A DNA stretch of 21,033 nt from Escherichia coli. GTDB taxonomy: Bacteria > Pseudomonadota > Gammaproteobacteria > Enterobacterales > Enterobacteriaceae. The translations under genes were made by a program, and so were the position numbers. The DNA lies in assembly GCF_003334335.1 (NCBI RefSeq), contig NZ_QOWQ01000051.1; one strand, written 5' to 3'. Shown here piece after piece: positions 4,095-21,033 of this stretch (positions are counted from its first letter, which is position 1; the number at the start of each line of letters is the position of its first letter). The notes below the pieces were generated by a model that had not been told where the DNA came from, did no database searches, and saw nothing but the letters and a program-made list of their open reading frames with translations.

Positions 4095-4295
4095 GTGATG
4101 ATATGGTTGTAGTGGATGTAAAAACATTTAGCAATATGTTTACAATATAATTACAACAAAGCTCACATTGTTGCTGTTTTTATCCGCACTTCAGGTCAAA
4201 AAGTCCTGGTCATAGCACCTGCCCGTACTTCTCGCTTTTGGCGGTATCCGGTACACTGCATTTTGTCTATTACATTTATGCTGAAGGATATCCTC

Positions 4296-4874: not shown

Positions 4875-4880
4875 GTCTGG

Positions 4881-5017
4881 CGTAGGCCGGATAAGACGTT
4901 TACGCCGCATCCGGCATTTGTGCGCTGATGCCTGATGCGACGCTGACGCGTCTTATCATGCCTACAAATCTGTACGCGAACCGTAGGCCGAATAATGCGT
5001 TCACGCCGCATCCGACC
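4881..5017. repeat. REP/BIME cluster (three REP palindromes) between gmhA and yafJ
   Basis: Imperfect palindromes of the E. coli REP type: gtaggccggataagacgtttacgccgcatccggca, gcctgatgcgacgctgacgcgtcttatcatgcctac and a third copy at 4981-5016. Confidence 0.8.
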
Positions 5018-5079
5018 TGAAAATTCTTAAATCAATCTTCGCCGGGGGCCATGCGCTCCCGCTGTTGTGGAGGTTACCC

Positions 5080-5847
5080 ATGTGCGAATTGCTCGGGATG
5101 AGCGCCAACGTCCCTACCGATATCTGCTTTAGTTTCACCGGGCTTGTACAGCGTGGTGGTGGAACCGGGCCACATAAAGATGGCTGGGGCATTACCTTTT
5201 ACGAAGGTAAAGGCTGTCGCACATTTAAAGATCCACAACCCAGCTTTAATTCCCCCATCGCCAAACTTGTCCAGGACTACCCGATAAAATCCTGTTCGGT
5301 GGTGGCTCATATTCGCCAGGCTAATCGGGGCGAGGTGGCGCTGGAAAATACTCACCCATTTACCCGCGAGTTATGGGGGCGTAACTGGACTTATGCCCAT
5401 AACGGACAACTGACGGGCTACAAATCACTGGAAACCGGCAACTTCCGCCCGGTAGGCGAAACCGACAGCGAAAAAGCCTTCTGCTGGCTCCTGCATAAAT
5501 TAACGCAGCGTTACCCGCGCACACCGGGCAACATGGCGGCGGTATTTAAATATATCGCCTCACTGGCGGATGAACTGCGGCAGAAGGGCGTTTTCAACAT
5601 GCTGCTTTCGGACGGGCGCTATGTAATGGCGTATTGCTCGACTAATTTACACTGGATCACCCGCCGCGCGCCGTTTGGCGTGGCAACGTTGCTGGATCAG
5701 GATGTGGAAATCGACTTCAGCTCGCAGACCACACCGAATGATGTGGTCACGGTGATTGCAACACAGCCGCTGACGGGCAATGAAACCTGGCAAAAGATTA
5801 TGCCAGGCGAATGGCGCTTATTTTGCCTCGGGGAGCGTGTAGTTTGA
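5080..5847 (+). CDS. yafJ: Class II (Ntn-type) glutamine amidotransferase-like protein YafJ
   Basis: Track ORF starts at 5065; the ATG at 5080 gives MCELLGM… with Cys at position 2, the class II GATase nucleophile arrangement, and 255 aa. GGAGG SD at 5069-5073. Confidence 0.85.
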
Positions 5848-6558
5848 TGCCAGTTGTGGCTGCACAACTTCGTGGCTTAACGGCTTGCTGACCACGTAAC
5901 GACCATTGACCACAGAAACGGTTGGTGGCTTACGGGTTTGCTCAAAGTAGTCGTAACCCGGCTTCAGTTGCTCCCAGAAGTCCTTAAAGTTGGAATATTT
6001 ATGGCGCTTCATATTGGCGTCGGTCATGCGGAACGGGTAAATACTCACTTGCACGCTCGGCTGACCAAACACCAGCGCACCAGTAACGAACTGGAATATC
6101 TCATCAATACCCTGATTGGTCATTGCGTAGCAGCCGATGGAAACACAATCGCCGTGGATCATCAGGTATTTCCCTTCATAACCATGCGCACGGTCATAGG
6201 CATTGGGGAAACCAATATTAATCGCTTTGTAGTAACGGCTGTCTGGTTTTAACTGATTACGCTGGACGCTATAAAACCCTTCCGGGCTTTTGAAATCGCC
6301 CTGACGCTGTTTTGGCCCTAAGCCGCCGGAATATTTACAGATTTTATAGCTGTCGAGCAGTTGATATTGCTCGCCCATTTTGACGTAGAGATCGAGCGTA
6401 CGTTCTTCCTTGAAGATCTGGATGTAGACAGGGGATCCCATCAACTGCTGCTTATACTCTTTGCTCACAGGCGTGGTAGAGCTACTGCTGCCCAGCAAAC
6501 CGGCAAATGAAACGCACGGGATCAACAACATCGCAAGAATTAATGCGATTTTACGCAT
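5818..6558 (-). CDS. yafK: L,D-transpeptidase-fold (YkuD) periplasmic protein YafK
   Basis: 246 aa with an N-terminal signal peptide and the YkuD catalytic region [12 protein letters not shown]. Its 3' end overlaps the 3' end of convergent yafJ by 30 bp. Confidence 0.85.
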
Positions 6559-6713
6559 ACTGCTTATTCCTTGATAAAACGGTTACACACGCCAGGACGG
6601 CAAAATGGATCCCAAATCGGAATAGTCTGGATTTGGAAGGCTCACATTATCACCAAAAGAGTTTTACGCAAGCCTGTCGGCGCAGGGTTTACAAATTTCA
6701 TCGGAAGCGGGCT

Positions 6714-6992
6714 TTACCCAAAGAGCGCCGCGTGAGTTCCAGTTCTCTCAAATCGTAAAAGTTTATCGGTAAGTTTGTAAATCAGGATCCAGTCCGGTTC
6801 GACATGAGCATCGCGATAACCTTTCCATGAACCTTGCAGCGGGTGGTCTTTATAAACAGCTGGAAGCGGTAAAGTATTATTGATAAGAAGCGTCATAAGA
6901 TATTTCAATTTATTCATATCCTTATGACGCTTTTGTGCAAGTTTTACATCCTTTGAATATTGTCCCGAGTATTCAATATCCCTTTGAATCAT
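6714..6992 (-). CDS. yafQ: YafQ toxin (RelE-fold, ribosome-dependent mRNA interferase)
   Basis: 92 aa ORF MIQRDIEYSGQYSKDVKLAQKRHKD… lying 2 nt downstream of dinJ on the same strand. Recognised from memory as YafQ. Confidence 0.9.
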   Translation of the reverse strand: MIQRDIEYSGQYSKDVKLAQKRHKDMNKLKYLMTLLINNTLPLPAVYKDHPLQGSWKGYRDAHVEPDWILIYKLTDKLLRFERTGTHAALFG

Positions 6993-6994
6993 AT

Positions 6995-7255
6995 TTAAAT
7001 TCCTAATTTATCAAATAAATCATCGGCGTCTTTGGCCTTATGAACATCAATGCCAGCTTCGCTGTTTTTGATTGATTGAATGGTTAATTGATTAGGCTCG
7101 CGTAAATCAAACGGCAATGCCTTTTCACGCGCGACCTTTGTGAGGGTTATGCGAACCAGGTCAGAGATGGTCAGCCCCATCCCGGCCAGTACGTCCGCTG
7201 CCTGATTCTTCAGATCTTCATCGATTCGGGCGCGAACAAACGCGTTAGCAGCCAT
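6995..7255 (-). CDS. dinJ: DinJ antitoxin (RHH DNA-binding)
   Basis: 86 aa ORF MAANAFVRARIDEDLKNQAADVLAGMGLTISDLVRI…, immediately upstream of yafQ with a LexA box in its promoter. Confidence 0.9.
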   Translation of the reverse strand: MAANAFVRARIDEDLKNQAADVLAGMGLTISDLVRITLTKVAREKALPFDLREPNQLTIQSIKNSEAGIDVHKAKDADDLFDKLGI

Positions 7256-7271
7256 TGGGGTATCTCCTGTG

Positions 7272-7287
7272 CTGTATATTTATTCAG
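7272..7287 (-). promoter_or_regulatory. LexA (SOS) box in the dinJ promoter
   Basis: Plus strand ctgtatatttattcag; minus strand CTGAATAAATATACAG, fitting the CTG-N10-CAG SOS box pattern. Located 17-32 nt upstream of the dinJ start codon. Confidence 0.7.
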
Positions 7288-7464
7288 CTTGAATTGTAGC
7301 TCAAATGAGCAACAGCGACAATCCATGAGTAATTTAATAAACGGATGTTTTTACATAATTAACTGAAATATATATGTTAATTTTATAATAATGGTTTATT
7401 AAGTTTGTTCAGAAACGATCCGGGATACACTGCAACATTAAAGCATGACCAGCCATTATTGAGT

Positions 7465-8214
7465 ATGTCCTTGCCGTCGATTCCATCCTTTGTATTGTCG
7501 GGATTACTGTTGATTTGTTTGCCGTTTTCTTCATTTGCCAGCGCCACCACATCACATATCTCTTTCAGCTACGCCGCCCGCCAGCGGATGCAAAACCGTG
7601 CGCGTTTATTAAAACAGTACCAAACTCATCTGAAAAAGCAGGCCAGCTATATTGTGGAAGGCAATGCCGAAAGCAAAAGGGCGCTACGCCAGCACAACCG
7701 GGAGCAGATAAAACAGCATCCAGAATGGTTTCCTGCTCCGCTCAAGGCGAGTGACAGACGCTGGCAGGCGCTGGCGGAAAACAACCACTTTTTAAGCAGC
7801 GACCATCTGCATAACATTACCGAAGTGGCGATTCACCGCCTGGAGCAGCAGCTTGGCAAGCCTTACGTCTGGGGCGGTACGCGGCCTGATAAAGGCTTTG
7901 ACTGTAGCGGGTTGGTTTTTTATGCCTACAACAAGATCCTTGAGGCTAAGCTCCCGCGCACGGCCAATGAGATGTACCACTATCGCCGGGCAACGATTGT
8001 GGCGAACAACGACCTGCGCCGGGGAGATTTGCTGTTTTTCCATATCCACAGCCGCGAGATAGCCGATCATATGGGCGTGTATTTGGGCGATGGGCAATTT
8101 ATCGAGTCGCCACGTACCGGCGAAACCATTCGGATAAGCCGATTAGCCGAACCTTTCTGGCAGGACCATTTTTTGGGCGCGCGCAGGATTTTGACGGAAG
8201 AGACGATTTTGTAG
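7465..8214 (+). CDS. yafL: NlpC/P60-family putative peptidoglycan endopeptidase lipoprotein YafL
   Basis: Track ORF starts at a TTG (7405); the ATG at 7465 gives 249 aa with a signal/lipobox-like N-terminus. NlpC/P60 catalytic Cys context GFDCSGLVFYAY and downstream His are present. Confidence 0.8.
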   Translation: MSLPSIPSFVLSGLLLICLPFSSFASATTSHISFSYAARQRMQNRARLLKQYQTHLKKQASYIVEGNAESKRALRQHNREQIKQHPEWFPAPLKASDRRWQALAENNHFLSSDHLHNITEVAIHRLEQQLGKPYVWGGTRPDKGFDCSGLVFYAYNKILEAKLPRTANEMYHYRRATIVANNDLRRGDLLFFHIHSREIADHMGVYLGDGQFIESPRTGETIRISRLAEPFWQDHFLGARRILTEETIL

Positions 8215-8296
8215 GACGGATAAGGCGTTTACGCCGCATCCGGCAGTTGTACGCAGGTGCCTGATGCGACGCTGGCGCGTCTTATCATGCCTACGA
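8211..8296. repeat. REP pair (BIME) between yafL and rayT
   Basis: gtaggacggataaggcgtttacgccgcatccggca overlaps the yafL stop, followed by gcctgatgcgacgctggcgcgtcttatcatgcctac. Confidence 0.8.
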
Positions 8297-8389
8297 GCCC
8301 GCGAATATTTGCGAGCCGCTTTCCCGATATAAAACAACCTCATTGCCAACCTTTCCTTTTCTTCTTACCGTTGAGAAAAAGGAGTCGCC

Positions 8390-8887
8390 ATGTCTGAATA
8401 TCGTCGTTATTACATCAAGGGGGGAACATGGTTTTTCACGGTGAATTTACGAAATCGTCGAAGCCAACTTTTGACCACCCAGTACCAGATGCTCCGTCAC
8501 GCCATTATTAAAGTTAAGCGAGACAGGCCTTTTGAAATCAACGCCTGGGTCGTTTTGCCAGAGCATATGCACTGTATCTGGACATTACCTGAAGGCGATG
8601 ATGATTTTTCCTCGCGCTGGCGGGAAATTAAAAAGCAATTTACCCATGCTTGTGGATTGAAAAATATCTGGCAACCACGTTTTTGGGAGCACGCCATCCG
8701 CAATACCAAAGATTATAGGCATCATGTTGATTATATTTATATAAATCCAGTAAAGCATGGTTGGGTAAAGCAAGTGAGTGATTGGCCATTCTCAACGTTC
8801 CATCGCGATGTCGCGCGAGGGTTATATCCCATCGATTGGGCGGGGGACGTAACGGATTTTAGTGCCGGGGAGCGTATCATTTCATAA
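8390..8887 (+). CDS. rayT: REP-associated tyrosine transposase RayT (TnpA-REP, IS200/IS605 HUH family)
   Basis: 165 aa with the HUH motif (PEHMHCIW) and a C-terminal Tyr region. REP arrays flank it on both sides, the REPtron arrangement. Confidence 0.85.
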   Translation: MSEYRRYYIKGGTWFFTVNLRNRRSQLLTTQYQMLRHAIIKVKRDRPFEINAWVVLPEHMHCIWTLPEGDDDFSSRWREIKKQFTHACGLKNIWQPRFWEHAIRNTKDYRHHVDYIYINPVKHGWVKQVSDWPFSTFHRDVARGLYPIDWAGDVTDFSAGERIIS

Positions 8888-8890
8888 TTG

Positions 8891-9095
8891 TGCGCAGATG
8901 CCTGATGCGACGCTAGCGCGTCTTATCATGCCTACAAACTTGTGCCGGATCGGTAGGCCGGATAAGGCGTTTATGCCGCATCCGGCAGTTATGCGCAGAT
9001 GCCTGATGCGACGCTGGCGCGTCTTATCATGCCTACAAACTTGTGCCTGAACGGTAGGACGGATAAGGCGTTCACGCCGCATCCGGCAGTTGTGC
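8891..9095. repeat. REP/BIME array (at least four REP palindromes) between rayT and lfhA
   Basis: Alternating copies of gcctgatgcgacgct(a/g)gcgcgtcttatcatgcctac and ggtagg(c/a)cggataaggcgtt(t/c)a(t/c)gccgcatccggca. The array ends 16 nt before the lfhA stop. Confidence 0.85.
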
Positions 9096-9110
9096 ACCAA
9101 TGCTGGATAC

Positions 9111-11204
9111 TTACATCAACGCCCCCATAATCTTCAACTCCAGCTCATCCGGCACTTCGTTATACGACAGCACATGCAGCCCCGGCGCAAACAACCTTGC
9201 ATAACGCGCCAGCAAAGGGCGCAGCTGCGGTGGCACCAGCAGCACCGGGTCTTTCCCCGCCGCTTTCATCTGCTCTTTCACCTGTGGCATCGTACTCTGG
9301 AACTGGTTGAGCATATTCGGATCGACCGGCACGCTGTCGAGCATCACTTTCCCGCCCTGTTGCGCCTGATTCACCACGTTGGTCAGCAGATTTTCCAGCT
9401 CATTATTCAGCGTATACACCGTCAGCTCCTGCTTGCGAACGAACGGATGGGTAATGCTGCGCCGCAATGCCAGGCGCACATCGGCCGCCAGCAGAATATG
9501 ATCTTTCGTCACCGTGCTACTGGCGACCAGCACGGTGGCGATGGTGACGATATCGCGCAGGGAAACGCCTTCGGTCAGCAGCGCCCGGTACACTTTCAGC
9601 AACTGGCTGTAATTGAGCGCCGCGCTCAAATCTTCCGCCAGACGCGGTGCCGTCGACGATAAACGGTTATGCAACTGCGTAATATCATCATAGTTAAACA
9701 AATCAGGAATATAGCTGCGCACAATCTTATTTACATGGGTAGCGATCACGCTGGCGCTGTCGATCACCTGATACCCCATATTCAGCGCCTTCGCTTTCTG
9801 CGCCGCCTGGATCCAGGTGACCGGCATCCCGTACGCCGGGTCGTTCCCCTGCACGCCGTCAATCTCGCCGTAGGTTTCGCTGGAGGGCAGGGCCATCAGT
9901 TTATCCGCCGGAATATCCGCTTCATCAGCCTTTATGCCGTTGATGAAAATGGCGTACTGACTGGGCTTAAGGCGGAAGTTTTCCCGAATGCGGATCTCCG
10001 GCAGCAGCACGCCGTTGCCGTCAGAAATCACCTGCCGCACGCCGCGAATCCGCTGGGTGAGCGGGTTACCCTGTGCTTTGTCCACCAGCGCCACCAGTTT
10101 GTAACCGAGGCTTAAACTGATAGGCTCGATCAGCGGAATGGTTTCCCAACTGACCTGCTGCTCGCTGGTTTCGGTGATGGTGCGGGTCAGCGTTTCGAGG
10201 CTTTTCTCTTCCGCCTCCGCCGCCAGCGGCTGTTTGCTCATCCGCCAGCCGGTAAAACCAAGCAGGGCGCTGAACAGCAAAAACGGCAGGTGCGGCATTC
10301 CCGGTACCACCGCCAGCACGAACATAATCCCGGTGGCGGTGTAGAGCACCGACGGGCTTGCCAGCAGCTGGTTACGCACGTCATGGGCGATATCGCCGTT
10401 GTCGCTGACGCGGGTGACGATAATCGCCGCCGCGGTGGAGAGCAGCAGGGAAGGGATCTGCGCCACCAGGCCGTCGCCGATGGTCATCAGCACATACTGC
10501 TGGAAGGCAGCATCGGCGCTCAGGTTGTATTTGAAGATCCCGATACAGACGCCGCCGATCAGGTTGATCGCCAGAATCATCATCCCGGCGATGGCGTCCC
10601 CGCGCACAAACTTCGATGCCCCGTCCATCGCGCCGTAGAAATCGGCCTCGCTGGCAACATCTTTACGCCGGGTTTGCGCCTGCGCCTGGTTGATCAATCC
10701 GGCGTTAAGATCGGCGTCAATCGCCATCTGTTTGCCGGGCATCGCGTCTAAGGTAAAGCGGGCAGAAACCTCGGAAATACGCTCGGCCCCTTTGGTGACG
10801 ACAATAAAGTTGATGATCATCAGGATGATAAACACCACGAAGCCGACGACAAAGTTGCCGCCGATCACCACCTGACCAAACGACTCAATCACCTTACCCG
10901 CCGCGCCCGCGCCGAGATGCCCGTGCAGCAGCACCACGCGCGTAGAAGCAACGTTAAGCGTCAGGCGCATTAAGGTGGTGATCAGCAAAATGGTCGGGAA
11001 CAGGCTGAATTCCAGCGGTCGTTTCGCCGACACCGCCACCAGCAGCACCATCACCGCCAGCACAATGTTGAAGGTGAACAGAATATCCAGCAGCGCAGGC
11101 GGCAGCGGCAAAATAACCATCGCCAGAATACACAGGATCACCAGCGGCACGCCGAGATTGCCGCCGCGCAGCAGCGCGAGGAACGATTTAGTTGTTTTCG
11201 CCAT
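9111..11204 (-). CDS. lfhA: Flagellar type III export apparatus protein, FlhA homolog (Flag-2 LfhA)
   Basis: 697 aa with N-terminal transmembrane segments and the FHIPEP signature region (VILPLPPALLDILFTFNIVLAVMVLL). A GAGGTG Shine-Dalgarno precedes the ATG. Clearly distinct in sequence from what I recall of E. coli Flag-1 FlhA. Confidence 0.85.
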   Translation of the reverse strand: MAKTTKSFLALLRGGNLGVPLVILCILAMVILPLPPALLDILFTFNIVLAVMVLLVAVSAKRPLEFSLFPTILLITTLMRLTLNVASTRVVLLHGHLGAGAAGKVIESFGQVVIGGNFVVGFVVFIILMIINFIVVTKGAERISEVSARFTLDAMPGKQMAIDADLNAGLINQAQAQTRRKDVASEADFYGAMDGASKFVRGDAIAGMMILAINLIGGVCIGIFKYNLSADAAFQQYVLMTIGDGLVAQIPSLLLSTAAAIIVTRVSDNGDIAHDVRNQLLASPSVLYTATGIMFVLAVVPGMPHLPFLLFSALLGFTGWRMSKQPLAAEAEEKSLETLTRTITETSEQQVSWETIPLIEPISLSLGYKLVALVDKAQGNPLTQRIRGVRQVISDGNGVLLPEIRIRENFRLKPSQYAIFINGIKADEADIPADKLMALPSSETYGEIDGVQGNDPAYGMPVTWIQAAQKAKALNMGYQVIDSASVIATHVNKIVRSYIPDLFNYDDITQLHNRLSSTAPRLAEDLSAALNYSQLLKVYRALLTEGVSLRDIVTIATVLVASSTVTKDHILLAADVRLALRRSITHPFVRKQELTVYTLNNELENLLTNVVNQAQQGGKVMLDSVPVDPNMLNQFQSTMPQVKEQMKAAGKDPVLLVPPQLRPLLARYARLFAPGLHVLSYNEVPDELELKIMGALM

Positions 11205-12327
11205 CCAGTTTAAGCACCTCTTTGGGAATGGAAATATGTCTGTTCAGGGCCGGGCGCGGCTGTGCACCCTCGCGCCAGTGTTTCATTTGCAGGACGTAGG
11301 TCAGAACGTGGGCGATGGCCCGGTAAAGCTGAAACGGAATTTGCTGGTTCACCTGGGTGGTGTAGTAAACCGAGCGCGCCAGTCGCGGGAACTCGACCAC
11401 TTCCACCTGATTCTCAGCGGCGACCTGGCGAATATAGAGGGCGATTTCATCGGTGCCTTTCGCCACCACAAACGGCGCGGCGGCGCGCGACGAGTCATAC
11501 TGCAACGCCACGGCGTAGTGGGTCGGGTTGGTGATCACCACGTTGGCTTTCGGCACCACTTTGCGAATTTGCCCCATCGCCAACTGCCGTTGCAGACGCC
11601 GCACGCGCGCCTTCACTTCCGGCTTGCCTTCCTGGTTTTTATACTCTTCTTTCAGCTCCTGTTTGGTCATCTTCAGCCCTTTGGTAAACAGGGCTTTCGC
11701 CAGCGGCACGTCGATTAACGCAAAGAAGATAAACAGGATGACAAAGTTGCGCATCACGCAGGCGTAGAGCGATAAACCCTCATTCATCGCCAGTTTGAAC
11801 GGTAGCGCCTGCAGGCCGAGAAAGGCGGCAAAGTTATTGTGCAGGCTTACCCACAGCATCACCAGCACCACCACCGACTTCACCGTCATCTTTCCCGTTT
11901 CCGCCAGATGTTCACTGGAAAACAGCCGCCCAATGCCTTTTAACGGGCTGATTTTGCTGAAATCCGGGAGGATTTTTTTCGGCAGAAACAGCCAGCCGCC
12001 GGGCACCAGCGAAGAGAGTAGCGCGGCAGCGGGCATCGGCAGCAAGGTGAGAATAAACTTGCCGAGTATTAACAGGTGATGGCGCAGAAACTGGCCGATC
12101 ACCTCCGGGTTATTAATCTCCTGCGCGTACTGATGCACGCTGATAAAACTCTCGCGCACAAAATCGGCATACCACGGGAAGCTGCTGGAGATCACCACAA
12201 ACGCCGCAAACAGGCTCGCCGCCAGCCCCATATCCTTCGAGCGCGGCAGTTGCCCCTCTTCACGCGCTTTACGCAGCTTTTGCGCCGAGGGTTTTTCTGT
12301 TTTTTCTTCGCTGCTGCTATCCGCCAT
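11188..12327 (-). CDS. lfhB: Flagellar export switch protein, FlhB homolog (Flag-2 LfhB)
   Basis: 379 aa with an FlhB-like N-terminus (…EKTEKPSAQKLRKAREEGQLPRSKD) and the conserved NPTH autocleavage motif (VVITNPTHYAVAL). Its stop overlaps the lfhA start by 17 nt. Confidence 0.85.
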   Translation of the reverse strand: MADSSSEEKTEKPSAQKLRKAREEGQLPRSKDMGLAASLFAAFVVISSSFPWYADFVRESFISVHQYAQEINNPEVIGQFLRHHLLILGKFILTLLPMPAAALLSSLVPGGWLFLPKKILPDFSKISPLKGIGRLFSSEHLAETGKMTVKSVVVLVMLWVSLHNNFAAFLGLQALPFKLAMNEGLSLYACVMRNFVILFIFFALIDVPLAKALFTKGLKMTKQELKEEYKNQEGKPEVKARVRRLQRQLAMGQIRKVVPKANVVITNPTHYAVALQYDSSRAAAPFVVAKGTDEIALYIRQVAAENQVEVVEFPRLARSVYYTTQVNQQIPFQLYRAIAHVLTYVLQMKHWREGAQPRPALNRHISIPKEVLKLDGENN

Positions 12328-13099
12328 AGTGACCTTTCAGCGCGTCGAGTTGCTGCAACACAAAATTCGCCAGATGCAGATAGTGATCCGGCAGGTTGTA
12401 GAGCAGGGTGGCAAAGCAGACCAGCCCCGCCAGCATGTTGATGGGAAAACCGAGTGAAAAAAGGTTCAGCGGCGGCGCAATGCGGTTGAGCAGGCCAAAG
12501 CAGCCCTGCACAATCAGCATGATAAAAGTGGTTGGCAGCGCCAGCAGCGATGCGGACGCCAGCACCCAGCTAAAGGCCAGCGCGATGGTGCGCAGGGTTT
12601 GCGGATGCAGCGCGTTGCCAATCGGCCAGTAGGTAAAGCCCTTATACAGCACACTCACCAGCAGCAGATGCCCGTCCATGGCAAAAAACAGCAGGATCGC
12701 GTAGACGTTGATGAGCTCCGCCAGCACGGTGGTCGATGCGCCACTGCTCGGGTCGTTCATCACCGCCATGCTCATCCCCATATTGAACGAGAGAATTTGC
12801 CCGGCCAGCTGTAGCGCCAGAAACAAAAACTGAAACATCAGCCCGAATAACATGCCCCATAAAATTTGCTCCACCGTCAGGATCAGGCTGTTGAGTGAAA
12901 GCAGGTCGTGGGGAATGGGATGCGGAATTAACGGCGTGATGATGATTGCCAGCGCCAGCGACAAAATAATCCGCACGCGCACGGTCAGGGCGCTGTTATC
13001 CAGCACTGGCACATAGCGCAGAAACGCCATAATGCGCACAAAGGGAAACCACAGCCCCAGCGCCAGATCCATCAGTTGCGTAACGTCGCTTGTGCGCAT
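12317..13099 (-). CDS. lfiR: Flagellar export gate protein, FliR homolog (Flag-2 LfiR)
   Basis: Polytopic membrane protein. The start at 13099 (MRTSDVTQLMDLALG…, 260 aa) sits 2 nt upstream of the lfiQ stop codon; the track offers an upstream start at 13150 (277 aa) that would lie inside lfiQ. Confidence 0.75.
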   Translation of the reverse strand: MRTSDVTQLMDLALGLWFPFVRIMAFLRYVPVLDNSALTVRVRIILSLALAIIITPLIPHPIPHDLLSLNSLILTVEQILWGMLFGLMFQFLFLALQLAGQILSFNMGMSMAVMNDPSSGASTTVLAELINVYAILLFFAMDGHLLLVSVLYKGFTYWPIGNALHPQTLRTIALAFSWVLASASLLALPTTFIMLIVQGCFGLLNRIAPPLNLFSLGFPINMLAGLVCFATLLYNLPDHYLHLANFVLQQLDALKGHYGG

Positions 13100-13100
13100 C

Positions 13101-13373
13101 TTAATGCACCAGCAGGGCGGCCTGGGTAAACAGGTGAATGCAGAGATCATGCAACTGGATAATCATCCATTTGCCGCACACGCCCAGCACCACCAGCGTG
13201 ACAATCAGCCTCGGCAAAAAGCTCAGGGTCTGTTCGTTAATCTGCGTTACCGCCTGGAACACGCTCACCAGCAGGCCGACCAGCAAACTCGGCACCACCA
13301 GTACCGAAACCAGCAAAATCACTACTTTTATGCCGCTGGCGACAATGTCGGCGGCAACGTCTACGGTCAACAT
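13101..13373 (-). CDS. lfiQ: Flagellar export gate protein, FliQ homolog (Flag-2 LfiQ)
   Basis: 90 aa with two hydrophobic helices, placed between the FliP and FliR homologs as in fliPQR operons. Confidence 0.8.
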   Translation of the reverse strand: MLTVDVAADIVASGIKVVILLVSVLVVPSLLVGLLVSVFQAVTQINEQTLSFLPRLIVTLVVLGVCGKWMIIQLHDLCIHLFTQAALLVH

Positions 13374-13375
13374 AA

Positions 13376-14128
13376 TCAGCCCAGCCCCAGCCCGCGAATG
13401 CTGGTGGTGAGCGTGCCGATGGTCAGCGACCAGCCGTCGATCAGCACAAACAGCATCAGCTTAAAGGGCAGCGAAACAATCAGCGGCGACAGCATCATCA
13501 TCCCCATCGCCATCAGTACGCTTGCGACAATCAGGTCGATAACCAGAAACGGGATGTAAATCATAAAGCCAATCTGGAAAGCGGTTTTCAGCTCGCTCAA
13601 CACATAGGCGGGCACCACGATAGAGAGATCCTGGTCGGCGGCATTGCCCTTCGCGCCTCCGATGGTCATGATTTGCGCCATCGCTTTTTTGTCGGTCTGC
13701 GCCAGCATAAAGCGTTTGAGTGGCGTCGCGGCGGTGCTTAACGCATCGGTCAGGGTAATCTGATCGTTTTCGAACGGCACTACTGCGTGGTCGTAAATAT
13801 TGAGCCAGATGGGGCGCATCACCAGCATGGTGAGGGAGAGCGCAATGCCAATCAGAATGCGGTTTGGCGGCGTTTGTTGCAGCCCTAGCGCCTGGCGCAG
13901 CAGCGACAGCACGATAATAAAGCGCGCAAAGCAGGTCATCATCAGCGCCATCGTCGGCAGCAAACCGACGAGGGTCATCAGAATCAGTACCTGAATTTTG
14001 ACGCTGTACTCCTGAGTGTTGCCGTGGGTGACCACGTTAAGCAGCGCAATATCGCCGCCCTGGGCGATTGCCAGCGGCGCAAGCGCCAGCAGCCCAAGGC
14101 CCAGCGTCAGTTGAGTGCGGCGTTTCAT
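13376..14128 (-). CDS. lfiP: Flagellar export gate protein, FliP homolog (Flag-2 LfiP)
   Basis: 250 aa with an N-terminal signal peptide (…LALAPLAIAQ) and a FliP-like transmembrane core. Its start overlaps the lfiN stop by 4 nt. Confidence 0.85.
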   Translation of the reverse strand: MKRRTQLTLGLGLLALAPLAIAQGGDIALLNVVTHGNTQEYSVKIQVLILMTLVGLLPTMALMMTCFARFIIVLSLLRQALGLQQTPPNRILIGIALSLTMLVMRPIWLNIYDHAVVPFENDQITLTDALSTAATPLKRFMLAQTDKKAMAQIMTIGGAKGNAADQDLSIVVPAYVLSELKTAFQIGFMIYIPFLVIDLIVASVLMAMGMMMLSPLIVSLPFKLMLFVLIDGWSLTIGTLTTSIRGLGLG

Positions 14129-14496
14129 GGTGCCAGGTCGTTGATATCGCGGGTGTTAAATTCCAGCACGCGCAGGCCGTACTTCTCGTTGACCACCACC
14201 ACTTCCGCTTTGCCCAGCAGGATATTGTTCACTTTAATATCCAGCGGCTCCCCGGCGAGTTTATCCAGCTCAATCACCGTGTCGTCGTCGATGTTAAGGA
14301 GGTCGGCTAACATGATCTCCACCGACGACACTTCCAGCGTTAAGGTCACCGGAATGCGTTTTAGCAGCGTCATCGAGTCGGAAAAACGGTCTTCCAGGCG
14401 GGTGACCAGCGTTTCAGCGTCGGCGGATTTTGCGACAGGCGCAACTTCATCGGTGAGGCCAAAATCCCCGGCTAAAATATCTTCTTGCTTACTCAT
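14125..14496 (-). CDS. lfiN: Flagellar motor switch / C-ring protein, FliN homolog (Flag-2 LfiN)
   Basis: SpoA-like C-terminal domain (…VTLTLEVSSVEIMLADLLNIDDDTVIELDKLAGEPLDIKVNNILLGKAEVVVV). The start at 14496 (MSKQEDI…) is chosen for coupling to the lfiM stop; the track's longest start is 14556. Confidence 0.75.
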   Translation of the reverse strand: MSKQEDILAGDFGLTDEVAPVAKSADAETLVTRLEDRFSDSMTLLKRIPVTLTLEVSSVEIMLADLLNIDDDTVIELDKLAGEPLDIKVNNILLGKAEVVVVNEKYGLRVLEFNTRDINDLAP

Positions 14497-15340
14497 GGCT
14501 ATTCTCATTTTTGCCCGCCAGCTCCGACAAAAACAGTTTGTCTTTGTCTTCCACAATCAGGGCGCTAAATAATTCAGATTGCCCAATCGCCACCGGGAAC
14601 GTTTCTCCCAGCGAGATGGGTAAAATATCCCCGGCTTTTATCTGCGTGAGATCCGCGACATTCATCGATAGCTCGGCGATTTTGACGTTCAGGGTCAGCG
14701 GCAGGGAGCGGATGATCTCTTTAATCAGGGCCGGTTTATTGACGGATTTCGCCACCTGCTGCGGTTTACTGTGCTCGCTGTGGCGGATCAGATTTAAAAT
14801 AAAATCGGTGTGGGCGTCGTCGAGCAAAATACGAAAACAGCTCTCTTCATCGCCCGCAAGGGTAAAGGTTAATTGATACGCCCAGTGGGTAATCACCGTG
14901 CTGCTGTCCAGCTTTAATTTCAGCGCAATACCGGAGGTTTGCAGATTAAATATCAGCGTGCAGATATCCAGCGCGAGTCGGTTCTTTAATCGTGTTTCGG
15001 TTTTGGTCGGCAGGCCGTTATGCGCTTTCGCCTCTTCAAGAGACGACTCCAGACCATAAAAATTGCCCAGCAGCATTAACAGCAAGGAGCGATCAATATC
15101 AAACGCCAGATGCCCGACCTGGGAAATCATTAGTTCAGCGTTTTTATTAATAATATCCATTTCGCAGCCAATCTTTTTTAAGGTGATATTGCTGCGATGC
15201 TTTTTGAGAAAGTAGCTGCCCAGATGCGAATCAATCACGTCAAAATTCCCCGTAAACAGGGTCGGCAGGTGATGGTAGGGGCGTCCGAGCCGATTACCTT
15301 CTAATTTAAAGATGCCTGGCGTTTTACTGTACTTCAGCAT
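14489..15340 (-). CDS. lfiM: Flagellar motor switch protein, FliM homolog (Flag-2 LfiM), short form
   Basis: 283 aa. The C-terminal region (…LTQIKAGDILPISLGETFPVAIGQSELF…) resembles the FliM SpoA-like domain. No LSQxEIDALL-type N-terminal peptide is present. Confidence 0.75.
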   Translation of the reverse strand: MLKYSKTPGIFKLEGNRLGRPYHHLPTLFTGNFDVIDSHLGSYFLKKHRSNITLKKIGCEMDIINKNAELMISQVGHLAFDIDRSLLLMLLGNFYGLESSLEEAKAHNGLPTKTETRLKNRLALDICTLIFNLQTSGIALKLKLDSSTVITHWAYQLTFTLAGDEESCFRILLDDAHTDFILNLIRHSEHSKPQQVAKSVNKPALIKEIIRSLPLTLNVKIAELSMNVADLTQIKAGDILPISLGETFPVAIGQSELFSALIVEDKDKLFLSELAGKNENSHE

Positions 15341-15485
15341 GGCTTACTTTCTCTGCTGTAATGGTATGGGCGATTTTGTGCACGCAAATCCGGCAGTGAC
15401 ACAAGGTGAGGTATTAAATAGAGGGGGAGTGAAAGGGGCAAATTATTAATAGGATGAAAAAATAATTAAATTATTAAAGGGCTAG

Positions 15486-15602
<117 letters not shown>

Positions 15603-15726
15603 ATGGATAACTCATTGTTTACCATAAAATAATATTTTTATTATCGTTTAATTCGAACTTGTTAATCCCGCCGGTGATACGCTTCACAATATCCTGTTTT
15701 CTGTCGCTACTGATATCGTTCACCCT

Positions 15727-16713
15727 ATGTCTGAACTTATTGCAACTGCCGCTTCCAGCATTAACGCTTTTACTCTGGCAAAGCGTGTCGCCGCATTTAA
15801 CGTGCCGGTGCTCATTCAGGGCGAAACCGGCGCGGGCAAAGAATGCGTGGCGAAATATATTCACACCGTAGCCTTTGGTGAAAATGATAACGCGCCCTAT
15901 ATCGGCGTGAACTGCGCAGCGATCCCGGAAAACATGCTGGAAGCTACATTATTTGGCTACGACAAAGGCGCATTTACCGGCGCAATTGCCAGTGTGCCAG
16001 GAAAAATGGAACTAGCGAATAACGGCACCTTATTACTCGATGAAATTGGCGATATGCCGCTGGCGCTACAGGCCAAAATATTACGCGTATTGCAGGAGCA
16101 ACAGGTTGAGCGATTAGGCAGCAACCGACAAATTAAACTCAATTTTCGCCTGATTGCCTGCACCAATAAAAACCTTGAACAGGAAGTGGCTGCCGGGCGT
16201 TTTCGTGAAGATCTCTATTATCGTCTGGCGGTTATTCCTATTACCATGCCGCCACTGCGTGAACGTCTGAACGATATTATTCCGCTGGCAGAGTCATTTA
16301 TAAAAAAGTACTCCACGGTGCTGGTGAAAAATATCACCCTTTCAGAATCTACCCGCCGGGCGCTGCTCAATTACCGCTGGCCCGGCAACGTGCGCCAGCT
16401 GGAGAACGCCATTCAGCGGGGAATGATTTTAAATCGCGACGGCGTGATTTACCCGGATGCCTTAGGCCTGCCGGAAACGGACGTTGCCGACCGCAGCGAA
16501 CTGCAATGGCCTGTTCAGCCCGCCGTCCACATTGCCGAAACCAGCGATTTGGGCCAGCACGGACGAAGCGCCCAGTATCAATATATCGCTGACCTGATGC
16601 GTAAATATCAGGGCAACCGCAGCAAAATCGCCGACCTGTTAGGCATTACCCCGCGCGCACTGCGCTATCGACTGGCCTCCATGCGCAAGCAAGGTATCGA
16701 AGTTTTCTCCTGA
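15727..16713 (+). CDS. lafK: Sigma54-dependent transcriptional activator (AAA+ plus HTH, no N-terminal regulatory domain), LafK-like
   Basis: 328 aa with Walker A GETGAGKE, the GAFTGA sigma54-contact loop, Walker B LLLDEIGDM and a C-terminal Fis-type HTH (…IADLLGITPRALRYRLASMRK). The AAA+ domain starts within the first few residues. An in-frame stop lies at 15649-15651 upstream. Confidence 0.85.
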   Translation: MSELIATAASSINAFTLAKRVAAFNVPVLIQGETGAGKECVAKYIHTVAFGENDNAPYIGVNCAAIPENMLEATLFGYDKGAFTGAIASVPGKMELANNGTLLLDEIGDMPLALQAKILRVLQEQQVERLGSNRQIKLNFRLIACTNKNLEQEVAAGRFREDLYYRLAVIPITMPPLRERLNDIIPLAESFIKKYSTVLVKNITLSESTRRALLNYRWPGNVRQLENAIQRGMILNRDGVIYPDALGLPETDVADRSELQWPVQPAVHIAETSDLGQHGRSAQYQYIADLMRKYQGNRSKIADLLGITPRALRYRLASMRKQGIEVFS

Positions 16714-16727
16714 CCCGGAAGTTAAAA

Positions 16728-17069
16728 ATGAGCATTACCACAATCAACAGCACCATGCAGGCGCAAATCATGCAGGACGTGCAGCGGATGCAGGCCAACG
16801 CCCAGGCGCCGGTGCTACCCGCCATGACCTTCAGTTCCACAGACCCGGACGTGTCGTTTAACCGCATTATGTACGGCGCGCTTGGTCATGTTGATCAGTT
16901 CCAGCAGGTGGCGGAGCTGCAGCAAACGGCTGTCGACACGGGCAAAAGTGATGACCTGGCAGGTGCGATGATCGCCAGCCAGCAGGCGTCGCTCTCTTTC
17001 TCCGCGCTGGTGCAGGTGCGCAATAAAATCGCCACCGGGTTTAACGACCTGATGAGTATGTCGATCTAA
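16728..17069 (+). CDS. lfiE: Flagellar hook-basal body protein, FliE homolog (Flag-2 LfiE)
   Basis: 113 aa small protein directly upstream of the FliF homolog, with a FliE-like C-terminal region (…ASQQASLSFSALVQVRNKIATGFNDLM). Confidence 0.75.
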   Translation: MSITTINSTMQAQIMQDVQRMQANAQAPVLPAMTFSSTDPDVSFNRIMYGALGHVDQFQQVAELQQTAVDTGKSDDLAGAMIASQQASLSFSALVQVRNKIATGFNDLMSMSI

Positions 17070-17073
17070 CCCT

Positions 17074-18720
17074 ATGAATGCACAAATAAAGAAGTTAACC
17101 CAGGCGTTTCCGGCGTTTCGACTGCGTCTCGTAGATAACAAACGCTGGGCGTTGATGGCGGGAGTGGGGCTTGCCGTGGCGGCGACGGCGATTATCGTCA
17201 GCGTGCTGTGGACCGGTAATCGCGGCTACGTTTCGCTCTACGGACGCCAGGAAAATCTGCCCGTGTCGCAGATTGTCACGGTGCTGGACGGCGAAAAGCT
17301 CAGCTACCGCATCGACCCGCAGAGCGGGCAGATTCTGGTGCCGGAAGATGAACTGTCGAAAACGCGTATGACCCTTGCCGCGAAAGGCGTGCAGGCGATA
17401 TTGCCCAGCGGCTACGAGCTGATGGACAAAGACGAAGTGCTCGGCAGCAGCCAGTTCGTGCAGAACGTGCGCTATAAACGCAGCCTCGAAGGGGAGCTGG
17501 CGCAGAGCATTATGTCGCTGGACGCGGTGGAGAGCGCGCGGGTGCATCTGGCGCTCAACGAAGAAAGCTCGTTTGTGGTCAGCGATGAGCCGCAAAACAG
17601 CGCCTCGGTGGTGGTGCGTCTGCACTACGGCGCGAAGCTGAATATGGACCAGGTGAACGCCATCGTGCATCTGGTTTCCGGCAGTATTCCGGGGCTGCAG
17701 GCCAGCAAAGTCAGCGTCGTCGATCAGGCGGGAAATCTGCTAACCGACGGCATTGGCGCGGGCGAGGCGGTCTCTGCCGCTACCCGTAAACGCGATCAGA
17801 TCCTCAAAGACATTCAGGACAAAACCCGCGCCAGCGTGGCGAACGTGCTGGATTCGCTGGTCGGCAGCGGGAATTACCGTGTCAGCGTGATGCCGGATCT
17901 CGACCTCAGCACCATCGACGAAACTCAGGAACACTACGGAGACGCGCCGAAAATAAACCGCGAAGAGAGCGTGCTGGACAGCGACACCAATCAGGTGGCG
18001 ATGGGTGTGCCCGGCTCTCTCAGCAACCGTCCGCCGGTTGCGGCGAATCAGATGACCAACGGCACGGAAGAAAATCGCTCGCCGGAAGCGTTATCCAAAC
18101 ACAGCGAAAGCAAGCGCGATTACTCTTACGACCGCAGCGTCCAGCATATTCAGCATCCCGGCTTTGCGGTGAAACGCCTCAACGTGGCGGTGGTGCTCAA
18201 TCAAAACGCCCCGGCGCTGAAAAACTGGAAGCCGGAACAGACCACGCAGCTTACCGCGTTGCTGAACAATGCCGCCGGGATCGACGCGCAACGTGGAGAT
18301 AACCTGACGCTTTCACTGCTTAACTTTGTCCCGCAGGTGGTCCCGGTCGAACCGGTGATCCCGCTGTGGAAAGATGACAGCGTGCTGGCCTGGGTGCGGC
18401 TGATTGGCTGCGGCCTGCTGGCGCTGTTGTTGCTGTTCTTTGTGGTGCGCCCGGTAATGAAACGCCTGACGGCGGTGCGTGCGCCGGTTATCACACCAGA
18501 ACCGGAAGCTGTCAGCGAACCGTGGATCGCTATGCCGGAAGAGGAGCGCAAAAACGTCGATCTGCCGTCGCTGCCCGGCGATGACAGCCTGCCTTCGCAG
18601 AGTTCCGGCCTCGAAGTGAAACTCGAGTTCCTGCAAAAACTGGCCATGAGCGACACCGATCGCGTAGCCGAAGTTCTCAGACAATGGATCACCAGCAATG
18701 AGCGAATTGACAACAAATAA
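17074..18720 (+). CDS. lfiF: Flagellar MS-ring protein, FliF homolog (Flag-2 LfiF)
   Basis: 548 aa with an N-terminal TM segment, a large periplasmic region and a second TM near the C-terminus (…LIGCGLLALLLLFFVV…). Length and topology fit FliF rather than the shorter injectisome SctJ. Confidence 0.85.
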   Translation: MNAQIKKLTQAFPAFRLRLVDNKRWALMAGVGLAVAATAIIVSVLWTGNRGYVSLYGRQENLPVSQIVTVLDGEKLSYRIDPQSGQILVPEDELSKTRMTLAAKGVQAILPSGYELMDKDEVLGSSQFVQNVRYKRSLEGELAQSIMSLDAVESARVHLALNEESSFVVSDEPQNSASVVVRLHYGAKLNMDQVNAIVHLVSGSIPGLQASKVSVVDQAGNLLTDGIGAGEAVSAATRKRDQILKDIQDKTRASVANVLDSLVGSGNYRVSVMPDLDLSTIDETQEHYGDAPKINREESVLDSDTNQVAMGVPGSLSNRPPVAANQMTNGTEENRSPEALSKHSESKRDYSYDRSVQHIQHPGFAVKRLNVAVVLNQNAPALKNWKPEQTTQLTALLNNAAGIDAQRGDNLTLSLLNFVPQVVPVEPVIPLWKDDSVLAWVRLIGCGLLALLLLFFVVRPVMKRLTAVRAPVITPEPEAVSEPWIAMPEEERKNVDLPSLPGDDSLPSQSSGLEVKLEFLQKLAMSDTDRVAEVLRQWITSNERIDNK

Positions 18721-19708
18721 GAGCAACAGCTACCTGGAACAGGCGGCGATCCTGCTGCTGTGTCTGGGCGAAGAGGCGGCGGCGACGGTGATGCAAAAAC
18801 TCAGCCGCGAAGAAGTAGTGCGCCTGAGCGAAAACATGGCGCGGCTTTCCGGCGTCAAAACCAGCATGGCGCGCAAAGTGATCAATAACTTCTTTGATGA
18901 GTTCCGCGAACAGAGCGGGATCAACGGCGCATCGCGATCCATGTTGCAGGGTATTCTCAACAAAGCCCTCGGCACCGAGATCGCCAGCAGCGTGATCAAC
19001 GGCATCTACGGCGATGAGATCCGCTCGCGGATGGCGCGCCTGCAATGGGTGGAACCACGCCAGCTGGCGATGCTGATCTCCGAAGAGCATTTGCAATTAC
19101 AGGCGGTGTTCCTCGCGTTTCTGACGTCGGAAATCTCGGCGGCGGTGCTCTCGTATCTCAATGAATCGGTGCAAAACGAAATTCTCTATCGGGTGGCGAA
19201 ACTCAACGACGTTAACCGCGACGTGGTGGATGAACTGGACAGGCTGATCGAACGCGGCCTGTCGGTGCTCTCTGAACATGGCTCGAAGGTGAAAGGCATC
19301 AAACAGGCGGCGGATATCGTCAACCGCTTCCAGGGTAACCAGCAGGTGATCCTCGACCAGATGCGCGAGCGCGACGAAGAGGTGCTGGAGCAGCTCCAGG
19401 ATGAGATGTACGACTTCTTTATCCTCAGCCGCCAGAACGAAGAGGTACGTCGACGTCTGCTCGACGAAGTGCCGATGGAAGACTGGGCGGTGGCGCTGAA
19501 AGGCACCGAAGCCCTGTTGCGGCGCTCGATTTACGCGGTAATGCCAAAACGTCAGGTGCAACAACTGGAAGCGATCACCGCGCGCCTGGGGCCGGTGCCG
19601 GTCAGCCGTATCGAACAGATCCGCCGCGAAATCATGGGCATCGCCCGTGAACTGGAAGAGGCGGGCGAAATTCAGCTACAGCTCTTTGCGGAACAGACGG
19701 CGGAGTAA
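18698..19708 (+). CDS. lfiG: Flagellar rotor protein, FliG homolog (Flag-2 LfiG)
   Basis: 336 aa, alignable by eye to FliG throughout (ILLLCLGEEAAATVMQKLSREEV…; …EAGEIQL at the C-terminus). Overlaps the lfiF 3' end by 23 nt. Confidence 0.85.
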   Translation: MSELTTNKSNSYLEQAAILLLCLGEEAAATVMQKLSREEVVRLSENMARLSGVKTSMARKVINNFFDEFREQSGINGASRSMLQGILNKALGTEIASSVINGIYGDEIRSRMARLQWVEPRQLAMLISEEHLQLQAVFLAFLTSEISAAVLSYLNESVQNEILYRVAKLNDVNRDVVDELDRLIERGLSVLSEHGSKVKGIKQAADIVNRFQGNQQVILDQMRERDEEVLEQLQDEMYDFFILSRQNEEVRRRLLDEVPMEDWAVALKGTEALLRRSIYAVMPKRQVQQLEAITARLGPVPVSRIEQIRREIMGIARELEEAGEIQLQLFAEQTAE

Positions 19709-19711
19709 CCC

Positions 19712-20422
19712 ATGACCATTGAAACACTGCGCGGGCGCTATCGCCTGCACCGCTTCCCGCCGCGCCAGCGTGCGGTGACCGGAGAACCGCTCACCGCCAG
19801 CATTAGCGCCGCCGATTACCAGCGCCAGTTGATGGACGGTTTTCAGGAAGGGCTGCAAAAAGGTTTTGCTCAGGGAATGACCGAAGGTCAGGAGCAGGGC
19901 TTTAGCGAAGGTCATCAGCAAGGTTTTGCCGAGGGGCGACGCCAGGGCTACACCGAAGGCAGTCTCGCCGGGCAGCAGGAAGGGCGCAAACAGTTTGTTG
20001 AGGCGGCGCAGCCGCTGGAAGCCATCACCGGTAAAGTGAACGACTTTCTCGCCCATATCGAACGTAAACAGCGGGAAGATTTGCTGCAACTGGTGGAAAA
20101 GGTGACGCGGCAGGTGATCCGCTGCGAACTGGCGCTGCAACCGACGCAGTTGCTGGCGCTGGTGGAAGAGGCGCTGGCGGCCTTCCCGGCGATGCCGGAA
20201 ACCCTGCAAGTGATGCTGAGTACGGAAGAGTTTAACCGCCTGCGCGACGCGGTGCCGGAAAAGGTCAGCGAATGGGGGCTGACGCCTTCGCCGGATCTGC
20301 CACCGGGCGAATGCCGGGTGATCACCGACAAATCCGAACTGGATATCGGCTGCGAGCATCGCCTTGAACAATGCATGACCGCGCTGAAAGAAACACTCAC
20401 GCCGGAGTCGCAGGGTGAGTGA
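19712..20422 (+). CDS. lfiH: Flagellar export ATPase regulator, FliH homolog (Flag-2 LfiH)
   Basis: 236 aa, positioned between the FliG and FliI homologs, with an N-terminal run of GxxxG repeats typical of FliH/YscL proteins. Confidence 0.75.
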   Translation: MTIETLRGRYRLHRFPPRQRAVTGEPLTASISAADYQRQLMDGFQEGLQKGFAQGMTEGQEQGFSEGHQQGFAEGRRQGYTEGSLAGQQEGRKQFVEAAQPLEAITGKVNDFLAHIERKQREDLLQLVEKVTRQVIRCELALQPTQLLALVEEALAAFPAMPETLQVMLSTEEFNRLRDAVPEKVSEWGLTPSPDLPPGECRVITDKSELDIGCEHRLEQCMTALKETLTPESQGE

Positions 20423-20956
20423 TTTTTCTGCGTTCGATAACGCCCTGCGCTCGCTGGAGTCGATCCCGCTGGCCCGCGTCGCCGGGCGGCTGGTGCGCCT
20501 TAACGGCATCCTGCTGGAGAGTGTCGGCTGCCCGCTAATGACCGGGCAGCTGTGCCGCATCGAAAGTGCCAATCACACGCTGATCGACGCGCAGGCCGTG
20601 GGCTTTAATCGCGACATCACCTATTTAATGCCGTTTAAACAGCCGGTCGGCCTGATGGCAGGCGCACGCGTCTTCCCGGAAGAAAAAGCCCACGACATCC
20701 TGATAGGCGAAAGCTGGTTAGGCCGCGTGGTGAATGGCCTCGGCGAACCGCTGGATGGCAAAGGCCGCCTGAACGGCAACGACCTTCTGCCGCCGTTGCC
20801 GCCCTCGGTTAATCCCTTAACTCGTCGTTCGGTAGACGAACCGCTGGACGTGGGCGTGAAAGCGATCAACGGCCTGCTGACCATCGGCAAAGGCCAGCGC
20901 GTCGGACTAATGGCAGGCAGCGGCGTCGGGAAAAGCGTGCTGCTGGGGATGATCCC
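20415..20956 (+). pseudogene. lfiI: Flagellum-specific ATPase FliI homolog (Flag-2 LfiI), 5' fragment truncated by IS186
   Basis: GTG start overlapping lfiH by 8 nt. FliI-like N-terminal domain and Walker A GSGVGKSVLLGM are present, then the reading frame runs into IS186 terminal sequence at about 20957. Only about 180 of an expected roughly 440-450 codons are present. Confidence 0.8.
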
Positions 20957-21033
20957 CATAAGCGCTAACTTAAGGGTTGTGGTATTACGCCTGATATGAT
21001 TTAACGTGCCGATGAATTACTCTCACGATAACT
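20957..21033 (+). mobile_element. IS186 (IS4 family) left end with the start of its transposase; element continues beyond the window
   Basis: The terminal sequence cataagcgctaacttaagggttg… matches the IS186 inverted repeat as I remember it. An ATG at 21012 opens MNYSHDN…, the IS186 transposase N-terminus. The preceding host sequence GGGGATGATCCCC fits the IS186 G-run/C-run target preference. Confidence 0.8.

Follow-up and report, generated by a model that had tools for sequence, protein, structure and literature searches.

The 21,033-nucleotide stretch of Escherichia coli DNA analysed here (contig NZ_QOWQ01000051.1, assembly GCF_003334335.1; hereafter the window) carries, at positions 9111-20956, what we identify with high confidence as cluster 1 of Flag-2, the second, lateral-type flagellar locus of E. 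coli, in a strain where the insertion sequence IS186 truncates the export ATPase gene lfiI and would leave the system crippled or dead. Flag-2 was reportedly described in 2005 and surveyed across the Enterobacterales in 2020, and the finding is already known biology: the copy in the window belongs to a known cryptic system and is in decay. An earlier note on this DNA had called the system described but cryptic rather than novel, a judgement that holds.

Thirteen genes occupy positions 9111-20956 in two divergent blocks of closely spaced open reading frames (ORFs) that often overlap, seven on the minus strand (lfhA, lfhB, lfiR, lfiQ, lfiP, lfiN and lfiM) and six on the plus strand (lafK, lfiE, lfiF, lfiG, lfiH and lfiI), and all but the truncated lfiI are complete and full length (12 of 13). 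The order, lfhA-lfhB-lfiR-lfiQ-lfiP-lfiN-lfiM divergent from lafK-lfiE-lfiF-lfiG-lfiH-lfiI, matches cluster 1 of Flag-2 as defined in print, lfhAB-lfiRQPNM-lafK-lfiEFGHIJ (PMC6993521), with lfiJ falling beyond the IS186 end. The minus-strand homologs of FlhA, FlhB, FliR, FliQ, FliP, FliN and FliM and the plus-strand sigma-54 activator and FliE-to-FliI homologs lie where the earlier note had placed them, and the NCBIfam profiles agree; its description of twelve consecutive genes making up a 5' half stands for the presence of the genes but not for their number, which is 13, nor for their extent, as the 11.85 kb present here correspond to about one third of the ~38-kb locus in the nearest complete genome, EC416. 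Compared one by one with their Flag-2 counterparts in E. coli 042, the 13 proteins show 96.8-100% identity, and neither the gene order nor the chromosomal site differs between the two. Furthermore, lafK, which serves as the Flag-2 marker gene (PMC6993521) and is absent from the primary flagellar system (Flag-1), is present and encodes a 328-residue protein with 97.0% identity to 042 LafK.

The chromosomal position, from rayT (yafM) to dinB, is that of Flag-2 as well. The left boundary lies inside the window, where, as the earlier note had stated, the cluster directly follows rayT (8390-8887) and an array of repetitive extragenic palindromic (REP) elements (8888-9108), while the right boundary, lafU-dinB, is seen in EC416, 042, Santai and U14A. 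EC416 differs from the window by only four single-nucleotide polymorphisms (SNPs) in 20,957 bases, and there the rest of the locus continues through lafU to dinB; the lafA flagellin gene and the rod, hook and stator genes follow the cluster, outside the window, in both nearest genomes, EC416 and TUM14664.

The lesion itself is precise. The last 77 nucleotides of the window (20957-21033, plus strand) are the left terminus of IS186 (IS186/IS421), identical in 77 of 77 bases to nucleotides 4-80 of K-12 IS186A, which bears out the earlier identification of the terminal element, and genome matches to the window all end at 20957. The insertion cuts lfiI just past the Walker A motif GSGVGKSVLLGMI, so that ~181 of 445 codons are left and 264 of the 445 LfiI residues are lost, including most of the ATPase domain; the full gene measures 1338 nucleotides in EC416. 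The uninterrupted EC416 sequence at the insertion site reads GCTGGGGATGATCACCCGCC, in which the native target GGGGATGATCACCC has the form G4-N7-C3 and thus lacks a single C of the target sequence that IS186 is published to prefer, GGGG(N6/N7)CCCC (PMC6925257).

In the arrangement that we propose, two divergent, translationally coupled operons would supply the core components of a flagellar type III export apparatus and its rotor, with LfhA, LfhB, LfiP, LfiQ and LfiR as the predicted export gate, LfiG, LfiM and LfiN as the C-ring, LfiF and LfiE as the MS ring and rod adaptor, and LfiH and LfiI as the ATPase complex. By interrupting lfiI just past the Walker A motif, IS186 would truncate the export ATPase and separate lfiJ from its promoter, and with lfiI cut in this way Flag-2 in the source strain is probably inactive, whether crippled or dead, as judged from its sequence. 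Such a state suits the general view that Flag-2 in E. coli is a cryptic locus being worn down by mutation: its genes are often interrupted by transposases (PMC6993521), strain 042 carries a frameshift in lfgC (PMC2808357), and the system has never been shown to be functional in E. coli (PMC3032704). All four SNPs between the window and EC416 (positions 888, 11840, 16918 and 19127) are nonsynonymous, and the three within Flag-2 are private to the window, changing LfhB R163H (11840), LfiE Q64L (16918) and LfiG P144S (19127) at positions where five other haplotypes show no variation. They give a weak hint of possibly relaxed constraint, three events being too few to test it.

Several points weigh against this reading. 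In Salmonella, loss of FliH and FliI leaves some export, and truncation of LfiI need not therefore be an absolute block. A scan of the spacer between lfiM and lafK returned no match within two mismatches of the sigma-54 consensus TGGCAC-N5-TTGCW, and with no convincing sigma-54 promoter found there, a LafK-driven hierarchy is assumed from Vibrio and Aeromonas. LfiM as a FliM-like protein is the weakest of the gene assignments, its likely identity being drawn from weak sequence similarity. Finally, the window ends 77 nucleotides into IS186, and the right junction and the rest of the cluster lie outside it.

One alternative is that Flag-2 stays functional despite IS186, through ATPase-free export or through excision of the element or outward transcription from it, and that lateral flagella are still built. 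Such a view draws on the residual export of the Salmonella mutants, on the integrity of all 12 complete genes and on the presence of the rest of the locus past the same insertion site in TUM14664. It has to contend with the loss of most of the LfiI ATPase domain, with a promoter region, that of lafK-lfiE, from which lfiJ and everything downstream have been cut off, with the amino-acid changes at invariant sites noted above and with the behaviour of the intact Flag-2 locus of the ST131 strain EC958, which is not expressed and gave neither LafA nor Flag-2 motility (PMC4637896). We consider a functional system in this strain very unlikely.

A second alternative holds that assembly created the lfiI-IS186 junction at the end of a contig, the actual genome having an unbroken lfiI. 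The window starts and finishes with exactly 77 nucleotides of insertion sequence, the 5' end of IS1414 at 1-77 and the left end of IS186 at 20957-21033; next to the former, bases 78-130 match an ISAs1/ISEc1 terminus present in 042. In all probability the window is one whole contig of a short-read assembly that broke at repeats (k = 77), and that look, together with a junction that differs by one nucleotide from the native sequence, would suit an artefact. Against it, the host DNA passes without a gap into IS186 at the very terminus of the element, the target being near-consensus, and the same site, with both junctions, is occupied in an independently closed genome, a position that a chance artefact of the assembly graph would not pick. 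We therefore regard an artefactual junction as very improbable and retain a genuine insertion into lfiI.

That closed genome, TUM14664 (NZ_CP135649), is the only one of 5,426 complete genomes to share the lfiI::IS186 site, in the same orientation; both of its junctions can be read, the target duplication is the 10-bp GGATGATCAC, and Flag-2 continues on the far side of the element with its remaining genes. At the window junction, positions 20950-20957 read GATCCC/CATAAG (the slash marks the junction), where the native sequence and TUM14664 have GATCAC(C), a one-base change inside the would-be target duplication. The window and TUM14664 diverge by ~2% over much of the locus and are nearly identical over the last 3.4 kb. 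Transfer of one shared IS186 allele by recombination was considered and is unsupported, as EC416, whose lfiI is uninterrupted, matches TUM14664 just as closely over the same 3.4 kb and the two junctions differ by one base. In our reading, the insertions are probably separate hits on a hot spot and not a single event common to both genomes.

Assignment to a flagellar rather than an injectisome system was made by comparing the bit scores of NCBIfam models protein by protein. For every export-gate protein the flagellar model outscores its Sct counterpart (FlhA 775 bits versus SctV 583, FlhB 341 versus 271, FliR 175 versus 96, FliQ 80 versus 45 and FliP 241 versus 192), as it does for FliF (222 versus 46 for SctJ), and the FliE, FliG, FliH, FliI and FliN homologs also match flagellar models. 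At the same time, and as the earlier note had held, the proteins are not those of the primary E. coli flagellum, with only 24-48% identity to the K-12 Flag-1 paralogs. The idea that these genes belong to Flag-1 or to a non-flagellar injectisome can lean on the homology of the export-gate proteins in all three kinds of system and on the significant scores of the Sct models, but it is refuted, to near certainty, by the profile scores, the low K-12 identities, the 96.8-100% match to 042 Flag-2, the presence of FliE, FliG and FliM/FliN-type genes and the continuation of the cluster into rod, hook, lafA and stator genes in the nearest genomes; the outcomes that the earlier note had named as fatal to its own view, closer resemblance to Flag-1 or to Sct proteins, did not occur.

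The minus-strand block begins with lfhA (9111-11204), encoding a 697-residue FlhA homolog of the export-gate ring that scores above the TIGR01398 cutoff and is 98.7% identical to its 042 counterpart and 44.8% to K-12 FlhA. Its best match in the PDB is 7AMY, the lateral FlhA of Vibrio parahaemolyticus (886 bits, ~60% identity over 685 aligned columns), compared with 581 bits for primary-type FlhA and 366 bits for Yersinia YscV, which places LfhA closer to the V. parahaemolyticus lateral protein than to primary FlhA. The kinship with V. parahaemolyticus Laf proteins raised in the earlier note is thus upheld for LfhA, the sole protein compared directly. The substrate-specificity switch gene lfhB (11188-12327; 379 residues, TIGR00328) keeps the NPTH autocleavage motif in its product, which is 96.8% identical to the 042 protein and 36.7% to K-12 FlhB. 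It is followed by lfiR (12317-13099; FliR, 260 residues, above the TIGR01400 cutoff, 99.6% to 042), lfiQ (13101-13373; FliQ, 90 residues, TIGR01402, 100%), lfiP (13376-14128; FliP, 250 residues, above the TIGR01103 cutoff, 98.0%) and lfiN (14125-14496; FliN, 123 residues, TIGR02480, 100%). The starts of lfiR (13099) and lfiN (14496) are those of RefSeq and are shorter than the longest ORFs. lfiP and lfiN overlap by 4 nucleotides, and the ORF list of the window holds no fliO homolog between them.

The last gene of the block, lfiM (14489-15340), encodes a divergent FliM-like C-ring protein of 283 residues, 98.2% identical to 042 LfiM, in which Pfam recognizes FliMN_C only (residues 210-269). BLASTP against K-12 FliM gave no match; hhalign aligns LfiM 76-250 to residues 114-292 of K-12 FliM with 85% probability (E 6e-6), and a profile search of the PDB reaches FliM at E ~1e-3. 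An AlphaFold2 model built from a 12-sequence alignment has a mean predicted local distance difference test score of 41.9, too poor for use, and both single-sequence and alignment-based word-indexed protein searches with LfiM returned matches from Enterobacterales only. LfiM lacks the N-terminal LSQxEIDALL-type CheY-binding motif of FliM, in agreement with the published view of lateral motors as non-chemotactic (PMC8042155).

On the plus strand, lafK (15727-16713) encodes a sigma-54 enhancer-binding protein in which Pfam detects Sigma54_activat (residues 6-172), the AAA lid and a Fis-type HTH_8 domain (284-317), with the GAFTGA motif at residue 81; no receiver domain was found by Pfam, and the AAA+ domain begins at residue 6. 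Among the matches listed in a word-indexed protein search, all LafK homologs are from Enterobacterales and measure 326-348 residues, from genera that include Citrobacter, Leminorella, Atlantibacter, Hafnia, Pantoea, Budvicia and Pragia. By analogy with Vibrio and Aeromonas, LafK would activate the genes for hook, rod and filament that lie downstream. The remaining genes of the block are lfiE (16728-17069; FliE, 113 residues, above the TIGR00205 cutoff, 97.3% to 042), lfiF (17074-18720; the FliF MS-ring protein, 548 residues, above the TIGR00206 cutoff, 98.0%), lfiG (18698-19708; the FliG rotor/switch protein, 336 residues, 200 bits with TIGR00207, 99.1%), lfiH (19712-20422; FliH, 236 residues, 317 bits and above the cutoff with NF009925, 99.6%) and the 5' fragment of lfiI (20415-20956; FliI export ATPase, 98.9% to 042 LfiI), whose residues 7-180 match positions 2-177 of the 434-position FliI model NF005535.

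The two blocks are divided by a 386-bp intergenic, putative promoter region (15341-15726) that contains a REP pair at 15519-15603. Among five haplotypes its gene-proximal ends are nearly invariant and the central REP pair is variable, the order of the pair being reversed in 042 relative to the window. The best site with the sigma-54 GG-N10-GC spacing has five mismatches and lies on the plus strand, pointing away from lfiM: TGGGCGATTTTGTGCA at 15367-15382, which faces lafK and has its core in the conserved portion of the spacer next to lfiM. Its sigma-54-like spacing is probably a matter of chance, and scans of the spacer for sigma-70 promoters and terminators likewise stayed at chance level.

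At the left boundary of the locus, the REP array between rayT and lfhA, a bacterial interspersed mosaic element (BIME), consists of two tandem 101-nucleotide units, and a related REP copy lies upstream of rayT at 8211-8347. Matches to naRNA4, a REP-derived Rfam family, fall at 8956-9033, at 8214-8291 and on the spacer copy, and Rfam reports under the same name a further REP/BIME copy at 4885-4962, between gmhA and yafJ. The left side of the window carries ordinary E. coli core genes (yafV, ivy, fadE, gmhA/lpcA, yafJ, dpaA, yafQ-dinJ, yafL and rayT). The G+C content is 56.3% in the Flag-2 part (9111-20956) and 51.3% in the left flank (78-8887), or 49.3% if fadE is left out. The dinJ-yafQ toxin-antitoxin pair (6714-7255) is present in the window and in K-12 and absent between dpaA and yafL in 042 and SE15.

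The closest described counterpart is the Flag-2 locus of enteroaggregative E. coli 042, reportedly the work of Ren et al., which has the same genes, order, orientation and site after rayT, with DNA ~95% identical. It differs in its intact lfiI and frameshifted lfgC, whereas the window has lfiI cut by IS186, as well as in the reversed spacer REP pair and the lack of dinJ-yafQ upstream. More distant are the Laf systems, said to have been described in V. parahaemolyticus by Stewart & McCarter (2003) and in Aeromonas hydrophila by Canals et al. (2006), which share the arrangement of fliMNPQR-flhBA divergent from lafK-fliEFGHIJ, with the sigma-54 activator gene lafK beside fliE, and, in V. parahaemolyticus, the lateral FlhA that is ~60% identical to LfhA. 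The divergent layout that the earlier note gave for Vibrio lateral flagella and Flag-2 is documented: every lateral cluster has its fliE-J group next to its fliM-R/flhBA group, and in Vibrio, enterics and Plesiomonas the two point away from each other (PMC4481668). Unlike the window, where the genes form one cluster, Vibrio has its lateral genes in two separate regions (PMC4481668), and the window further departs from Vibrio and Aeromonas in a LafK without receiver domain and a spacer in which no sigma-54 promoter was found. The Vibrio and Aeromonas systems are proven lateral flagella for swarming, whereas E. coli Flag-2 is without such proof, published tests of its flagella and motility having been negative or ambiguous (PMC4637896; PMC3032704). 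Compared with Flag-1 of E. coli (flhBA, fliE-R), finally, the parts of the export gate, C-ring, MS ring and ATPase complex are homologous, but LfiM is undetectable by BLASTP, FliO is missing, FliK and FliL are encoded elsewhere in the Flag-2 locus, the regulator is a sigma-54 activator rather than FlhDC, and LfiM has no CheY-binding N-terminus.

The flank of the window also allows the K-12 deletion to be placed at base level. In K-12 MG1655 only lfhA (fhiA, b0229) and lafU (mbhA, b0230) are annotated between rayT and dinB, both as pseudogenes, in keeping with the statement in the earlier note that K-12 retains no more than an fhiA remnant here. Window positions 753-10814 are 100.000% identical to K-12 240000-250061, 10,062 bases with zero mismatches, and this identity takes in the part of lfhA that survives as the K-12 pseudogene; the source strain is a very close K-12 relative that still has Flag-2. 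K-12 keeps lfhA only from 9111 to 10814, its 3' 1,704 nucleotides, and then jumps to lafU, which sets the left breakpoint of the K-12-type lfhA'-'lafU deletion at 10814/10815 (K-12 250061-250062). Relative to EC416 the deletion removes 35,577 bp, and the sole perfect microhomology at the junction is the 3-bp GAT (GTTGAT versus GTGGAT). The scar is present in one piece in 4,087 of the 5,426 complete genomes, B strains among its carriers (T7Express; also PMC3032704). E. coli B (BL21/REL606), a candidate source of the window in view of IS186 and the close match to K-12, was rejected on that ground and because TUM14664 alone among the complete genomes shares the lfiI-IS186 junction. The scar query finds 6,714 match places in 5,425 complete-genome records, from which we infer that ~1,290 records hold the scar halves apart, as expected for an undeleted locus, and at least 80% of the whole window is found contiguously in 825 of the complete genomes. 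About a quarter of complete E. coli genomes still carry both Flag-2 ends, and these counts agree with published Flag-2 frequencies of ~20-25% (PMC6993521).

The same junction recurs in E. coli on flanks of at least four haplotypes, which differ from one another by 2-5% and each have a matching intact Flag-2 allele at 99.9-100% over 800 bp. When scars (400 + 400 bp) were built in silico from four intact loci (the K-12-like window/EC416, 042, U14A and Santai), the constructs differed pairwise at 15-41 of 800 positions, and real scar-bearing genomes matched them at 100% (window/EC416), 99.9% (042), 100% (U14A) and 100% (Santai). Likewise, 108 of 110 variable sites (1,700 + 750 bp) pair the K-12 scar with the intact window/EC416 allele and the C4 scar with that of 042, and in two lineages the flanks of scar and intact alleles show no differences over at least 10 kb; SE15 (scar) and U14A (intact) have no real difference over 2.6 kb on the left and 8.4 kb on the right. 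The same 24-mer junction is found in the type strain of Escherichia albertii, with flanks 92.3% identical to those of K-12, and E. albertii is reported to be polymorphic for Flag-2 (PMC11420993). Side by side with these stand short contigs bearing the E. coli Flag-2 scar in two metagenome-assembled genomes, labelled Clostridiales (95% to K-12) and Collinsella (99.9%), most likely through binning contamination by Escherichia DNA.

One account of this pattern, which we offer tentatively and hold to be rather doubtful, is that the scar marks a recurrent, junction-precise loss of the 36-41 kb Flag-2 interior by a site-specific or strongly templated mechanism. The conventional alternative is a single old deletion kept as a long-lived polymorphism, with recombination homogenizing the flanks up to the heterology boundary. 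Between haplotypes, the stretch free of SNPs beside the junction extends for only 12-93 bp to its left and 66-219 bp to its right. With 3 bp of microhomology, repeated origin of an identical deletion is difficult to explain in the absence of some dedicated mechanism. De Maayer et al. ascribe the deletion to direct repeats and report lfhA-lafU deletions in other genera as well (PMC6993521), so that the idea of recurrent loss is partly anticipated.

Disruption of Flag-2 genes by insertion sequences is an already reported theme, and the finding as such matters little; the case adds one more route of decay, insertion of IS186 at a near-consensus target in the export ATPase gene. It also provides a base-level map of the K-12 deletion from a strain with a K-12-identical flank, and the recurrence of the scar across haplotypes and in a sister species raises the question, one open to cheap tests, of how bacterial populations come to lose or retain large gene clusters.

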